Shown here piece after piece: positions 10,461 to 45,934 of a stretch of DNA of 64,000 bases. Location of the stretch: positions 12,702 through 76,701 of IMG/VR virus record IMGVR_UViG_3300025940_000007. One strand, written 5' to 3'. Each line of letters begins with the position of its first letter. The stretch's first letter is position 1. This DNA is from a virus. The notes beneath the pieces are model-generated. The model did not search any database. It had not been told where the DNA came from and was given only the letters and a program-made list of their open reading frames with translations. A program made the position numbers and the translations under genes.

Positions 10461-10762
10461 TTCCTCGCCGCGCGCCTCACGATTCGATAGAGGCCGGGCT
10501 CGTTGTATCCGCCGCGTTTCTCTCCCTTGATTTGAACGTCGGTCCCGGCCAGCAGATCGTTGATCTGATGAATGTGAACATGAACCGTCTTCACGTTGGT
10601 GCCATCCGGAAAACAGTGCGCTCGAATGCCAGCGAGGGTAACGCCCGGGTGCGCATGCACGAAATCAAAGATGCACGCCTTCATCGCCGGGAGATAAACG
10701 CCCTCACGTTTCTTCGGCGGCAGCGGTTGCCCGCAGCACCGACACATCGCTTGTCCGCTCAC
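10442..10762 (-). CDS. Zn-ribbon plus OmpR-like winged-helix protein
   Basis: CRCCGQP...KTVHVHIHQIN...GLYRI. Confidence 0.6.
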   Translation of the reverse strand: MSGQAMCRCCGQPLPPKKREGVYLPAMKACIFDFVHAHPGVTLAGIRAHCFPDGTNVKTVHVHIHQINDLLAGTDVQIKGEKRGGYNEPGLYRIVRRAARKWKGSK

Positions 10763-11253
10763 CCGTGCTGTTTCCTCGGTAGCGGAATCGGATTGGTGAA
10801 CATTCGGAAGTGCGTCGGACAATACGACGAGAGGCACCCGTTGTAGTCCGGGCCGCGTGGCTTGCCGCACACTCGCTGCAGCGCCCACGGTCCGCCTCGC
10901 GTTGGCATTATCGCCTTGCATCCGAAGCTATCGTTCTCCAGATACTCGATGCCAACGTGCTGCGCGATGACGTTGACCTCCTCTACAGTGACTGGCTTTC
11001 TCGGTGATACTTTCACGGCTGGCTTGCTCCTTGTTCGTGGTGATCTCTTCTTCACTGGTGCGGCGGTCTTCACTGGCGGCGCCACACCTCGCCGTTTGAA
11101 CGCTTCGTCGGGAAGGCGATATCGTCGGCCTGCGATCGAGTTGCGGCTAACAACATAGCCCGCATCTTTCATTCCCTGTGCGACGTAAGCGAGTGAGCCG
11201 CCTTCGTCCCATAACTTGATGAGCAGATCATCTGCTGCGTCGTTCCAAAGCAT
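10759..11253 (-). CDS. gcrA: GcrA-like cell-cycle transcriptional regulator
   Basis: W....L.KLW.EG.S......VSRNSIAG...RL N-terminus and C-terminal C...CG...SYCPTH. Confidence 0.8.
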   Translation of the reverse strand: MLWNDAADDLLIKLWDEGGSLAYVAQGMKDAGYVVSRNSIAGRRYRLPDEAFKRRGVAPPVKTAAPVKKRSPRTRSKPAVKVSPRKPVTVEEVNVIAQHVGIEYLENDSFGCKAIMPTRGGPWALQRVCGKPRGPDYNGCLSSYCPTHFRMFTNPIPLPRKQHG

Positions 11254-11479
11254 TGCTTGCCCTCTTTATTTTGAAAACGTCGGGGCGAATTTCCTCCGGG
11301 CTCAACTTCAACAGCGACACCAGCGGCATGACGTGCTTCGCCGGGACGCGCTTCCATTGCTGCACGGCCTGATACGTCAGACCGACTTCGCTCGCGATCG
11401 CCCTCGCGAGACCTTCGGCCACGGCGCGTCGCATCACCGCATCACGGCGAGCTTCGAGCAGTCCAACTTTCTTCTTCAT
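11228..11479 (-). CDS. Cro/YdaS-like transcriptional regulator
   Basis: LARAIASEVGLTYQAVQQWKRVPAKH...EEIRPDVF. Confidence 0.85.
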   Translation of the reverse strand: MKKKVGLLEARRDAVMRRAVAEGLARAIASEVGLTYQAVQQWKRVPAKHVMPLVSLLKLSPEEIRPDVFKIKRASNALERRSR

Positions 11480-11493
11480 TCGTTCACCCGCCC

Positions 11494-11509
11494 GTTGATA
11501 TAAATCAAC
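11494..11509. promoter_or_regulatory. inverted repeat, putative operator, in the divergent cro/tas promoter region
   Basis: GTTGAT-ataa-ATCAAC. Confidence 0.5.
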
Positions 11510-11548
11510 CCGACCTTAACCCACGGAGAATCATCGCGCAAGAAAATG

Positions 11549-11578
11549 TTGCATCGTACAAAAACAGCGTGTTACAAT
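11549..11578 (+). promoter_or_regulatory. sigma70-like promoter for the guide/tas operon
   Basis: TTGCAT-18 nt-TACAAT with TG extension; predicted start falls at the GNRA hairpin at 11585. Confidence 0.6.
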
Positions 11579-11584
11579 TCGCAC

Positions 11585-11653
11585 GCCGAGTAATCGGCAC
11601 GAGCCCCGGCCAATGTTCGGTTGAAACCCTATAAATCAATGCCGGGGCTCACC
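11585..11653 (+). ncRNA. solitary TIGR-like guide unit preceded by a GTAA-tetraloop hairpin
   Basis: gagccccggc-ca-ATGTTCGGT-tgaaaccct-ATAAATCAA-tg-ccggggctc (11601-11650). Confidence 0.85.
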
Positions 11654-11671
11654 TCTAATTTAGGAGCAACC

Positions 11672-12316
11672 ATGAGCATCAGATCAATCGCCATCGCGGC
11701 TCTACGCGAGCACGGTGGCAAGCCCGAGAAGGCTACCGCTGCGTTTGTGCAGGCGGCGCGCAAGGCGGGCAAGCTCAATGAGCTCGCTCTGGTTTATCTG
11801 CGGATGATCGCCTCGCAGGGCATCGTTGATGCGGTCGCTACGGGCGCCAGTAGCGGCACCGAAAAACCGGTCAGCCCGCGCGTCGCCGCCGTGCTGTCGG
11901 CGCCCAGATCGAACGTCACACCGATCGACACAGCCCGCCGATCGCCCTCCCGCAAGCTCGCCGCACGTGGCGCAATGGCCGAGAGCGTCGAGGCGGTTTA
12001 CGAAATGCAGTTCGACGGTCGCGCGCTCGGTCGCGTGCAGTTCGGGCAGTTGATCACGATGAAGCGGGAGTTCATCGAGGATGCGGCGTCGATGCTCGAA
12101 CACGGCAAACTGTTTGTGCGCAATGCGGTGCTCGCTGGCTTGATCCACGATCACTGCGTCGCTGCGGACGATCTCGCCGAGGTGCGTACGCTGGTCGCGC
12201 CGAAGAAGCTCGCCGCTATGGTCGCACAAGCGGATCGAGAAGCACCAAAGAGAATCGCCGAGGCCACGAGGCGCGCGGCGGAAGCAATGGCAACACCAAA
12301 GGAGCTAGCACGATGA
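11672..12316 (+). CDS. hypothetical protein translationally coupled to the tas gene
   Basis: AGGAG RBS, ATG at 11672, ATGA overlap with 12313. Confidence 0.75.
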   Translation: MSIRSIAIAALREHGGKPEKATAAFVQAARKAGKLNELALVYLRMIASQGIVDAVATGASSGTEKPVSPRVAAVLSAPRSNVTPIDTARRSPSRKLAARGAMAESVEAVYEMQFDGRALGRVQFGQLITMKREFIEDAASMLEHGKLFVRNAVLAGLIHDHCVAADDLAEVRTLVAPKKLAAMVAQADREAPKRIAEATRRAAEAMATPKELAR

Positions 12317-13284
12317 AGAAGCCCACCAAGACGCCCGCGAAGAAGACCGCCGTCAAGAAGACTGCGAAGAAATCCGCTCCCAAAAAGAGCGGGAGCCCGG
12401 CCAGTCTCGCCATGAAATCCTCTGATGGATTGCCGGGCTCACAAATCCTCGACAAGATCATCGAGAGCCACCGTGCGCGGCGGTTCGCGATGGGCATCCA
12501 GCAAGTGCTGGATCGCAAAGTCGAGAGCTATGTCCGGATCAACTTCACCGAATGGAATGCGAACGACGCCGAGGACAGCCGTGCGAAGTCCAACGCCGAG
12601 GCGCTGGCGCTGCTCAAGGCGGCACGCGAGGGTGAAGGTGACGATGAGCTCATCCGCGCGGTGACGATGTCGGACAACGCCCGGGCGCATGCCGACGCCG
12701 AGCGCCTGCGCCACGAGAAGGTGATGACGTCGCTGGCCAAGGATCTGCCGATCGCACCGTGGATCGACTCGGTGCCGGGCCTCGGCTTGCTCGGTGTCGC
12801 CACGATCCTCGCTGAGACTGGCGATCTGTCGAAGTATGCGAACGTCGCCAAGGTTTGGAAGCGCCTTGGCTATGCTCCGTACAACGGACTCGCTGGCTCG
12901 ACGTGGAAGCGACCGAAATGGCGCAACGGTGAGCCCGCGCTCAGTGCCGAAGAGTGGACGCTCAATCCGTTCAACGGGAAGCGCTACGGGATGTTGTTCT
13001 CGATCTCCGACTCGCTGCTCCGCAAACAGTGGATCGGCAAAGCGAAGACCGAGGACGGCAAAGGCAAGGCCGATGGCAAATACGGCGCCGTATACGAGAA
13101 GCGCCGCGAGCACACTGCGGTGACGCACCCGGAGTGGACACCGAAGCACAGCCAGATGGACGGCCTTCGCATCATGATGAAGGAAGTCATTAAGGATCTG
13201 TGGGTCGAATGGAATCGACACGCAGCGGACGGGCGCCACACTTCTCGTGATCCCCTTGGGACGGATGCGCCCGTCCAACTCTAA
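12313..13284 (+). CDS. TIGR-associated Nop-domain RNA-binding protein (TasA-like; no RuvC or HNH visible)
   Basis: IS110/Nop-like core WIDSVPGLGLLGVATILAETGDLSKYANVAKVWKRLGYAP and C-terminal H...LR...K..IKDLWVEW; no DEDD or HNH motif; directly followed by a dual-spacer array. Confidence 0.85.
   Translation: MKKPTKTPAKKTAVKKTAKKSAPKKSGSPASLAMKSSDGLPGSQILDKIIESHRARRFAMGIQQVLDRKVESYVRINFTEWNANDAEDSRAKSNAEALALLKAAREGEGDDELIRAVTMSDNARAHADAERLRHEKVMTSLAKDLPIAPWIDSVPGLGLLGVATILAETGDLSKYANVAKVWKRLGYAPYNGLAGSTWKRPKWRNGEPALSAEEWTLNPFNGKRYGMLFSISDSLLRKQWIGKAKTEDGKGKADGKYGAVYEKRREHTAVTHPEWTPKHSQMDGLRIMMKEVIKDLWVEWNRHAADGRHTSRDPLGTDAPVQL
12393..12440 (+). ncRNA. TIGR-like guide unit inside the 5' part of the tas CDS
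   Basis: gagcccggc-ca-GTCTCGCCA-tgaaatcct-CTGATGGAT-tg-ccgggctc. Confidence 0.75.
13227..13276 (+). ncRNA. TIGR-like guide unit inside the 3' end of the tas CDS
   Basis: ggacgggcgc-ca-CACTTCTCG-tgatcccct-TGGGACGGA-tg-cgcccgtcc. Confidence 0.8.
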
Positions 13285-13285
13285 T

Positions 13286-13774
13286 CGGTCGCCATCGTCC
13301 CGTTGAAAACCAACGCCTTGGTGCGACCGCGAGCCCCGGCCTGCTGCGCTGTGAAGCCCACGAGGGTGCCGCCGGGGCTCACCTATTCGAGATCGTCTGC
13401 AGCGATGCAGGCGAGAGCCAGAGACCACCTAACGCGCGGAGCCCATTATTGCTCTGTCTCTGGCTCACCAATTCAAGACACGGTCGCCTCAGTGCTTGTG
13501 AAGCCCAGAGATGGCATGCGACCGTAGAGCCACGGCCCGTTGTACTTGCGAAGACCAAAGGTCACTTGGCCGTGGCTCACCCATTCAAGATCACCGCCAG
13601 CGATGGCGGTGCGAGCCCCGGCCACACTGCTTGTGAAGCCCGTTCTCGGATTGCCGGGGCTCACCTAATTCGAACTACGGTCGCCACGATGCAGATGGAA
13701 ACCAACCAGCCGATGCGACCGCGAGCCCCGGCCACTCCTCGGATGGAAAACCCATGCGCTATTTGCCGGGGCTC
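13286..13774 (+). ncRNA. stem-loop TIGR-like array 1 (8 guide units and 2 empty GCGA hairpins)
   Basis: Alternating cggtcgc/gcgaccg and gagccccggc/gccggggctc stems, each enclosing CC(A)-N9-TGAAGCCCA-like-N9-TG. Confidence 0.9.
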
Positions 13775-14051
13775 ACCTCTTCTTCCGCTTACCGAAGATG
13801 TCGGGCCGAATCTCTTCGGGCGTCATTTCGATCAGCGGTGCAATATCGAGCACGTGGTGCGCGGGTACTTTATTCCACGCGGCTACGTTCTGGTGAGACA
13901 CATTGAGATGTCGAGCAATGACACTCGCAAAGCCGGGTTTGCTGAAGATCATCTTCATGACGTGATCGCGCTGCGAGTCACGTCGTTCGCTTGATCGTCT
14001 CATGATCTCGCCGCGCATAAAGCGCGCGGCCTCCACTGCTGTGCTGCTCAT
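13773..14051 (-). CDS. second Cro/YdaS-like regulator
   Basis: IARHLNVSHQNVAAWNKVPAHH...EEIRPDIFG; paralogous to 11228-11479. Confidence 0.8.
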   Translation of the reverse strand: MSSTAVEAARFMRGEIMRRSSERRDSQRDHVMKMIFSKPGFASVIARHLNVSHQNVAAWNKVPAHHVLDIAPLIEMTPEEIRPDIFGKRKKR

Positions 14052-23289: not shown

Positions 23290-24030
23290 CGATCGCCATC
23301 GTACTGTTGCAACCCAACGAGCGAATGCGATCGCGAGCCCGGCCCGGTTATATTTGAAGCCCCCTATGCGGACGCCGGGCTCACCCTTTCGAATCGATCG
23401 CCGGTCAGTGAGTGCAAACCACAGAAGACTTGCGATCGCGAGCCCGGCCAATTCATCGATGAAGCCCAAAGCCGATATGCCGGGCTCACCCTTTCAAATC
23501 GGTCGCCTGATCAATCGTGATCTCCAAGGAAATCTTGCGACCGCGAGCCCGGCCTCTCGCCCTTTGAGGCCCACGTTGTTGATGCCGGGCTCACCCTTTC
23601 CAATCGCCAGCCATTTTGAAGGTGCAAACCCGAGCATGGATGCTGGCGAGAGCCGGGGCCACAACTGTCGTGCGATCCCGATCGCGGGTGCCCCGGCTCA
23701 CTCAATTCGAATCGGTCGCCAGACGTTGTGTGAGATCCCATCTGCACTTGCGACCGACGAGCCCGGCCCGTTCGCCCTTGATGCCCTTGAACCGTATGCC
23801 GGGCTCACTCTTTCGAAGATCGGTCGGCCCTCCGGTCGATGAAGCCCCCGGACCGATTGCTGACCGTAGAGCCCCGGCCCACGAGCGACTGAAGCCCACT
23901 GTCTGCGTGCCGGGGCTCACCTAACACGAGATCGGTCGCCGCCACCGCTGTGAGACCCACACGGCATCTGCGACCGCGAGCCCCGGCCACCGAGCACCTG
24001 AAGCCCAAACGAGCAGTGCCGGGGCTCACC
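23290..24030 (+). ncRNA. stem-loop TIGR-like array 3 (14 guide units in 7 tandem pairs, period about 107 nt)
   Basis: Strict alternation of cg(g/a)tcgc- and gagccc(c)ggc-type stems, each with two 9-nt variable spacers around a 9-nt loop repeat. Confidence 0.92.
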
Positions 24031-37666: not shown

Positions 37667-37734
37667 GTGAGGGCGGGCCTTGGCCAAGAAGGTCATGAAA
37701 CCCATTCGACTGTTGTCTCTGGGCTCGCCCTCAC
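37667..37734 (+). ncRNA. solitary TIGR-like guide unit, antisense to the late operon
   Basis: gtgagggcgggcc...cca-AGAAGGTCA-tgaaaccca-TTCGACTGT-tg...gggctcgccctcac. Confidence 0.85.
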
Positions 37735-45860: not shown

Positions 45861-45934
45861 GTGAGGGCGGGATCAGTGGTTTGGCCTCATCCATCCTGAA
45901 GCCCATGTAGTCTGTGCCGTGATCTCGCCCTCAC
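45861..45934 (+). ncRNA. solitary TIGR-like guide unit, antisense to the late operon
   Basis: gtgagggcgggatca...cct-CATCCATCC-tgaagccca-TGTAGTCTG-tg...tgatctcgccctcac. Confidence 0.85.

Follow-up and report, generated by a model that had tools for sequence, protein, structure and literature searches.

Two divergent early operons in a rhizosphere phage

The stretch of DNA analysed here (the window; 64,000 nt) covers positions 12702–76701 of a single virus record of 76,701 bp. The source phage was recovered from the rhizosphere and has a genome of 76.7 kb with 60% GC. The same DNA occurs in numerous metagenomes from rhizosphere and soil; the public runs containing it number 23, all of them DNA metagenomes and none recorded as RNA. 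A blastn search with positions 10700–13400 gave no matches among GenBank phages.

Two divergent early operons flank the region of interest, which contains a guide unit, U6, and its candidate target site. The leftward operon begins with a gene for a cro-like helix-turn-helix repressor (11228–11479, minus strand, 83 aa), followed by a GcrA-like gene, a Toprim primase gene and a helicase gene. The cro-like protein matches YdaS_toxin (2.6e-06) and P22_Cro (5e-04) in Pfam, both under the curated cut-offs, and phrog_35, annotated as 'transcriptional repressor', in PHROG (4.3e-08). The adjoining gene for a GcrA-like cell-cycle regulator (10759–11253; Pfam 30.4 bits, above the cut-off) points to an alphaproteobacterial host.

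The rightward operon opens with orf214 (11672–12316, plus strand, 214 aa), which belongs to no known family and found no match in Pfam, PHROG or the PDB. Synteny by tblastn places orf214 ahead of tas in eight related loci (L002, L004, L010, L015, L017, L018, L020 and L027), and on this evidence it is a conserved partner gene of tas. Identity with the ParB-like TasParB was considered for orf214 and is not detectable by sequence. The second gene of the operon is tasA (12313–13284, plus strand, 323 aa).

A Tas protein with no recognizable nuclease domain

We examined TasA by homology and by structure prediction. Its sole Pfam match is a weak one (22.1 bits) to PF02371, the IS110 C-terminal domain, and its sequence weakly matches 9mty_A. 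We found 172 homologues at E-values up to 1e-5, the closest up to 1e-141; the nearest Tas homologues are P0002 (76%) and P0003 (72%), both from ENA. The model, folded with 27 homologues, has a pLDDT of 83.4 and consists of a disordered, lysine-rich segment (residues 1–42) followed by an all-helical coiled coil and Nop domain (residues 43–305). Its ten best PDB fold matches are cryo-EM chains of TasH–tigRNA and TIGR-TasR, at a probability of 1.0 and with TM scores of 0.46–0.66 normalized by target. Neither Pfam nor the model contains an HNH or RuvC domain, and a 323-aa Tas lacking a nuclease domain falls into the TasA subtype. We conclude that, as modelled, the protein is a nuclease-less Tas with a Nop domain and a coiled-coil dimerization domain. 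An initial annotation of this DNA had proposed a non-cutting Tas, which agrees with a model made up of coiled coil and Nop only, whose best folds are TasH and TasR. Its assignment to a TIGR-Tas system also stands, given the Tas fold, the unit architecture, and the strand and clustering of the units described below. The start of tasA (12322–12380) is a lysine/alanine-rich, low-complexity stretch that draws many unrelated metagenome contigs; read depth there spikes to 44–70 in the metagenome runs, and coverage over it is uninformative.

Guide units across the genome and its relatives

Within the window we counted 34 occurrences of the motif GAGCCCCGGC and its complement (9.3 expected), in pairs separated by 40 nt. 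Each stem pair encloses CCA, nine variable nucleotides, TGAARCCCN, nine further variable nucleotides and TG. A strict pattern identified 31 tigRNA units in this genome, 31 of 31 on the tas strand, and 118 of 122 units in five relatives are likewise on the tas strand. The total reached 399 units across 27 sequences, with about 370 around tas homologues in 26 IMG/VR loci. Differences between the stems are compensatory: GAGCCCCGGC, GAGGCCCGGC and GAGCCACGGC, for instance, each have a 3′ arm that matches. Rfam returned no tigRNA family for these units, only two sub-threshold miRNA matches.

One stem-loop TIGR array lies directly 3′ of tasA (13331–13775, plus strand) and another was located by the unit scan at 23334–24027 on the tas strand. 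A further unit lies within the tasA coding sequence (12392–12441, plus strand), in the part encoding the disordered N-terminal region, and a second intragenic unit is found near the C-terminus (13236–13267); both keep the reading frame. Units within tas have been described for stem-loop systems (Xu et al. 2026, bioRxiv 10.64898/2026.09.09.750476).

Solitary units also stand 20–45 nt 5′ of early-gene start codons, up to ~20 kb from tas (window positions 1220, 3039, 15707, 18396, 19869 and 19978; genome positions 8888, 10491 and 12433). Downstream of each is a pyrimidine-rich linker and then a Shine–Dalgarno sequence, and excision from mRNA leaders seems to be the source of these guides. Two other units on the plus strand, whose outer stems are different (37674–37727 and 45885–45918), occupy short gaps within the late (structural) operon of the minus strand and run antisense to the genes around them. 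A second stem class, GGTCGC...GCGACC, occurs at 13487, 19830, 23611, 23719 and 23828 and alternates with the GAGCCCGG class at offsets of ~48 nt, as it does in most related loci (such as L008, L010 and L024). At L011 2554–2585, spacer B (GCACCTATC) equals the conserved stem-end and linker that follow neighbouring units and is present in three copies within 160 nt; this looks like a hybrid or degenerate unit.

The leader unit U6 and its predicted promoter

U6 is a leader stem-loop tigRNA unit at 11601–11650 on the plus strand, with the architecture common to ~30 other units in this genome. It comprises a 10-bp stem, the box C motif CCA, spacer A (11613–11621; ATGTTCGGT), a loop (11622–11630; TGAAACCCT), spacer B (11631–11639; ATAAATCAA) and the box D motif TG. 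Just 5′ of it, RNA folding identified a small leader hairpin, GCCGA-GTAA-TCGGC (11586–11599, plus strand). The fold of 11585–11680 gave this hairpin followed by the U6 stem-loop as predicted, with a minimum free energy of −35.1 kcal/mol and a z-score of −3.84.

A relaxed scan predicted a rightward promoter at 11549–11578 (plus strand), TTGCAT-18-TG-n-TACAAT, with a weak −35 and an extended −10. A standard promoter and terminator scan of 11100–12000 returned nothing. The tas promoter proposed at these positions in the initial annotation is thus recovered by the relaxed scan and is not reported by the standard tool. Its description of U6 as the first guide of the tas operon fits, as no other unit stands between U6 and the best promoter candidate. 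Transcription of U6 would start at the predicted promoter, and the guide would be cut out of the 5′ leader of the orf214–tasA operon. From its sequence and setting, U6 can firmly be called a genuine tigRNA unit in the leader of a stem-loop TIGR-TasA operon of a phage, beside a probable protein operator.

A palindrome and a partial U6 match ahead of the cro-like gene

The probable operator is a perfect palindrome, GTTGAT-ATAA-ATCAAC, read directly at 11494–11509. It lies 15–30 nt upstream of the cro-like start codon (position 11479, minus strand, in the ORF list, as had been annotated), and is the sole zero-mismatch match to its pattern in the window; the interval separating the divergent early operons has no other perfect palindrome. 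Such a structure is not rare in itself, since we estimate ~0.5 palindromes with 6-bp arms and spacers of 0–10 nt somewhere in 190 nt. An exact search of IMG/VR was uninformative, giving more than 100 unrelated matches. The simplest reading of the 16-bp palindrome would be as an operator to which the Cro-like protein encoded next to it binds; an IHF site and a CtrA box were also considered, and by eye neither fits.

Overlapping the palindrome is the candidate tigRNA target (11500–11517), ~110 nt upstream of U6. Its plus strand reads as spacer B followed by a sequence resembling the reverse complement of spacer A, with 9/9 positions matching spacer B and 6/9 matching spacer A. The identity of spacer B with 11500–11508, the 6/9 match of the reverse complement of spacer A to the next nine nucleotides (11509–11517; 15/18 overall) and the overlap with the palindrome are all as initially annotated, except that the identity really extends over 10 nt: TATAAATCAA is present at 11499–11508 and 11630–11639, the only two copies in the window at one or no mismatch. 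Spacer A is mismatched at positions A2, A4 and A9, none of which could be accommodated as a G:U pair. Next to the spacer B match, the wrong-side flank agrees at 5/9 positions, compared with 6/9 on the right side, which indicates that the 6/9 owes much to GC-rich composition.

We compared this arrangement with the target of TaTasR tigRNA1, whose spacer A is UGCAAGCCC and spacer B UUGCCUUAG (Table S3, Faure et al. 2025, PMC12045711) and whose target strand reads TGCAAGCCC then CTAAGGCAA (Faure et al. 2025, PMC12045711). The two TaTasR target strands are A.rc(B) and B.rc(A), and the plus strand of 11500–11517 reads B.rc(A), so the layout claimed for U6 (B, then rc(A), with no gap) is right and equals the published one. 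The TaTasR seed consists of the two target nucleotides 3′ of the cut, whose partners are spacer positions 4 and 3; a mismatch at these positions impairs action on both strands. A4 belongs to this seed, so the U6 mismatch at A4 is one in the seed. Engagement by PlTasA and SpTasH begins with spacer A, at the outer junction, and two of the U6 mismatches, A2 and A4, are at this junction-proximal end of the spacer.

The candidate site falls in the leader of the leftward cro-like gene, 21–38 nt ahead of its start codon, and the distance from the site to the rightward −35, which is downstream of it, is 32 bp. A bound complex would therefore more plausibly block the leftward operon than the tas promoter, and 'autoregulation', as first proposed, is not the best description even if the site is bound.

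The match is at most marginally beyond chance

We searched the 399 units against the 27 sequences on both strands for matches with at most three mismatches. The right layout gave 192 matches in one count and 211 in another; the corresponding numbers for three wrong-layout controls were 164, 163 and 189, and 178, 176 and 208. Since the right layout is no commoner than the wrong layouts, a 15/18 match as such is background. Proximity and exactness were then considered together. A first-order Markov simulation of unit flanks predicted 0.43 units with an exact 9-mer within 300 nt in this genome, and one was observed; family-wide, exact recurrence within 300 nt accounted for 18 rows, representing by our own count ~9 independent spacers of 798 (~1%). 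For an exact half accompanied by at least 6/9 on the correct side, the simulation gave an expectation of 0.004 per genome; a match with at most three mismatches within 500 nt is expected ~0.07 times per genome, an estimate scaled from the four-mismatch rate of control layouts. Among 20 near-self matches in six genomes, that of U6 alone lies within 1 kb of its unit, and one match of 20 within 150 nt of its unit corresponds to p ~0.08. Chance probabilities for the U6 match thus range from ~0.004 to 0.08 by statistic. We conclude that the U6 match is at most marginally beyond chance.

This genome has nine right-layout matches with at most three mismatches, where permutation of the spacer pairs leads to an expectation of 3.3 (Poisson p ~0.01), and five, three and three near-self matches in the wrong layouts. 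Five near-complete relatives of 65–83 kb together have 11 near-self matches against 14.6 expected, so the near-self excess is not general. Among 149 units in six phage genomes, none has a self-target with no or one mismatch. The nine near-self matches show no significant codon-phase or seed-position bias, with 8 of 27 mismatches in the seed compared with 6 expected. Unit 3048, set against 1779–1796, is the sole near-self match with all mismatches in one codon phase. Matches across loci are not enriched in the right layout either (190, against 164, 161 and 197). A general rule by which guides would target recoded alleles of genes of their own phage is, on these counts, not supported.

No counterpart in relatives and no perfect target in a related context

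The relatives compared for the leader layout have Tas identities up to 61%. Two of them, L002 and L004, share the order of cro-like gene, intergenic region and leader unit; the leader unit precedes orf214–tas in L004 and a PDDEXK gene in L002. Compared with their own intergenic DNA, the L002 and L004 leader units have 7–8 mismatches at best, no better than wrong-layout controls, and the relation between guide and site is neither conserved nor co-varying in these two relatives. Outside the arrays, no other unit of the 399 has a nearby target. Logan contigs from four rhizosphere and soil runs are identical over 11100–12500, with no variants, and hence carry no covariation information.

The exact 18-mer that would be the perfect target of U6 has five matches in IMG/VR, all in phages of 25–37% GC, and 25 in GTDB genomes, which is near the chance number. 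Two alphaproteobacterial matches among the 25 were inspected in detail. The 'Phenylobacterium' match lies on a contig of 43% GC inside a 548-aa ORF, and the Roseovarius match encodes MFGLIY inside an ORF; both were rejected. A degenerate pattern covering self, perfect and intermediate sites gave one AT-rich, unrelated match in JGI metagenomes. The initial annotation had named a perfect match in relatives as a check on its proposal; none was found in a related context in IMG/VR, GTDB or JGI metagenomes, and the computational half of what it said would count against the proposal is what we observed.

In another locus, a guide just after tas (L007 4605–4636) matches a conserved downstream gene at 16/18 in L019 and L021 (6081) and L020 (6069), all the same site, and also, again at 16/18, a different-looking L008 site (7926); its own copy (L007 5245) matches at 15/18. 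This guide may possibly be aimed at a conserved phage gene, or the match may be a GC-rich coincidence.

Interpretation of the U6 match

The premises of the initial proposal, namely a TIGR-Tas system, a nuclease-less effector, the target layout and repression by TasA, all hold, whereas the inference drawn from them, autoregulation or silencing of a competitor's switch, is unsupported, given that there is no perfect related target, that L002 and L004 have no match, that the statistics are borderline and that the seed is mismatched at A4. The resemblance of U6 to 11500–11517 is quite probably a product of chance. On balance we favour an account in which U6 is an ordinary leader tigRNA, its match to 11500–11517 is without function and the palindrome is a protein operator. 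Coincidence is preferred because matches of this quality occur at background frequency, the 6/9 is compositional, the seed is mismatched, relatives offer no counterpart and there is no perfect related target. Composition can also explain why the match lies so near: an AT-rich spacer in a genome of 60% GC finds near-matches only where promoter DNA is AT-rich, and for U6 the closest such stretch is the region upstream of itself. The true target of U6, like those of the other ~30 guides, would then lie outside the sequences available here. We infer the absence of function for this match. The describers of TIGR-Tas systems report that natural guide targets are unknown and that short spacers lead to many false matches.

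The observation itself is real and the layout is right, which keeps a regulatory reading alive. Taken jointly, the possibilities that the leader tigRNA directs TasA to the early switch of its own phage or of a closely related rival are doubtful. In the case of its own phage, TasA–U6 would bind 11500–11517 weakly through the full B duplex and a partial A duplex, obstruct transcription of the leftward cro-like/replication operon as a roadblock in its leader, possibly bending the divergent promoter region, and thereby link the early switch to rightward-operon output in a feedback loop; we consider this unlikely. The geometry is favourable, with a correct layout without a gap and 10 exact nucleotides 110 nt from U6, on the sole perfect palindrome between the divergent early operons, yet the site is outside the tas promoter, so that this would not be strict autoregulation. 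There is also a precedent for the pairing: the first TIGR target seen, a site in E. coli wcaD, had spacer B fully paired and spacer A at 6/9 (Faure et al. 2025, PMC12045711), and TaTasR engaged it. Both nuclease-less TasA and dead TasR repress transcription when targeted, in reporter assays (Xu et al. 2026, bioRxiv 10.64898/2026.09.09.750476). However, a nuclease-less effector needs no mismatches, yet three are present, one of them in the seed at A4, and the imperfect spacer A is the one that initiates engagement. The expectation of only 0.004 per genome for the full pattern, here within 131 nt, has to be set against the lack of conservation in L002 and L004 and the lack of a good self-target for any unit in six genomes.

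Alternatively, the perfect target of U6, ATAAATCAA then ACCGAACAT, could be the homologous switch of a related competing phage, with three escape differences in the resident copy that spare its own early operon while the rival's is silenced, a scenario to which we give a low probability. Competition between mobile elements has been proposed as a role by the authors of the TIGR papers, and none of the nine near-self matches has two or fewer mismatches, as expected if self-targets are avoided. The right-layout excess in this genome (9 against 3.3) would fit as well, but the five near-complete relatives do not reproduce it and cross-locus matches show no enrichment. The L007 guide, at 16/18 on a conserved gene in three or four relatives and 15/18 on its own copy, has the expected pattern; the exact-target scans for U6, on the other hand, yielded AT-rich or coding chance matches (5 in IMG/VR, 25 in GTDB) and the degenerate JGI scan a single unrelated one.

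Very improbable is a purely historical identity, in which spacer B was copied from neighbouring DNA or U6 arose in a duplicated operator: the identity runs 1 nt past the spacer into the box C′ position, U6 without the 5-nt AACCC of its loop reads GTTGATATAAATCAA, equal to 15 of 16 palindrome bases, and the mode of spacer acquisition in TIGR systems is unknown, but the extra matches (T, GT+TGA) add only ~3 informative bases because TGA is in every unit, no other unit has a local copy and no mechanism is known.

If TasA did act at the early switch, U6 would be the first TIGR-Tas guide for which a natural target is assigned, and its action would be an instance of RNA-guided control of a phage early switch and a demonstration of the role of nuclease-less TasA in nature. 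A guide with an adjacent target in its own switch region would offer a directly testable case on natural TIGR targets. The analysis also shows how easily a chance match arises, and claimed TIGR targets call for controls with wrong layouts, permuted spacer pairs and whole genomes of relatives.

Comparison with known systems

Like Cro/CI-type operators of divergent phage early regions, the presumed operator is a perfect palindrome (6-4-6) with a Cro-like gene on one side and a divergent promoter on the other, but it is present in one copy and not as a tripartite operator. Among RNA-guided systems, long-form tracrRNA represses the cas9 promoter and the Francisella scaRNA is a self-directed guide with a partial match. 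Such CRISPR guides need partial pairing to avoid cutting, so that they bind without cleavage, and their relations are conserved across strains. U6 is like them in being encoded beside the effector gene and in matching a promoter-proximal site incompletely; it is unlike them in that TasA has no nuclease, which leaves the mismatches without that rationale, and in that the relation is not seen in relatives.

TaTasR tigRNA1 has an identical loop repeat (UGAAACCCA), CCA and UG boxes and the same target layout, and at wcaD the combination of a fully paired spacer B with a 6/9 spacer A is that of U6. Unlike the U6 system, TaTasR is a RuvC nuclease with dual-repeat arrays, and its wcaD site is an off-target of overexpression rather than a regulatory site, where only one strand was cut efficiently.

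The closest known systems are those with the stem-loop TIGR architecture (Faure et al. 2025, PMC12045711; Xu et al. 2026, bioRxiv 10.64898/2026.09.09.750476). With PlTasA, BlTasA and MbTasA, the present system shares a nuclease-less Nop/coiled-coil protein and a phage host, units built from a palindromic stem, CCA, a 9-nt A, a 9-nt loop, a 9-nt B and TG, and the presence of units upstream, downstream and inside tas. It departs from them in that many of its units are solitary and lie in early-gene leaders at distances from tas of up to ~20 kb. Reports on such systems name no natural target, whereas U6 has a candidate, albeit imperfect, 110 nt away.
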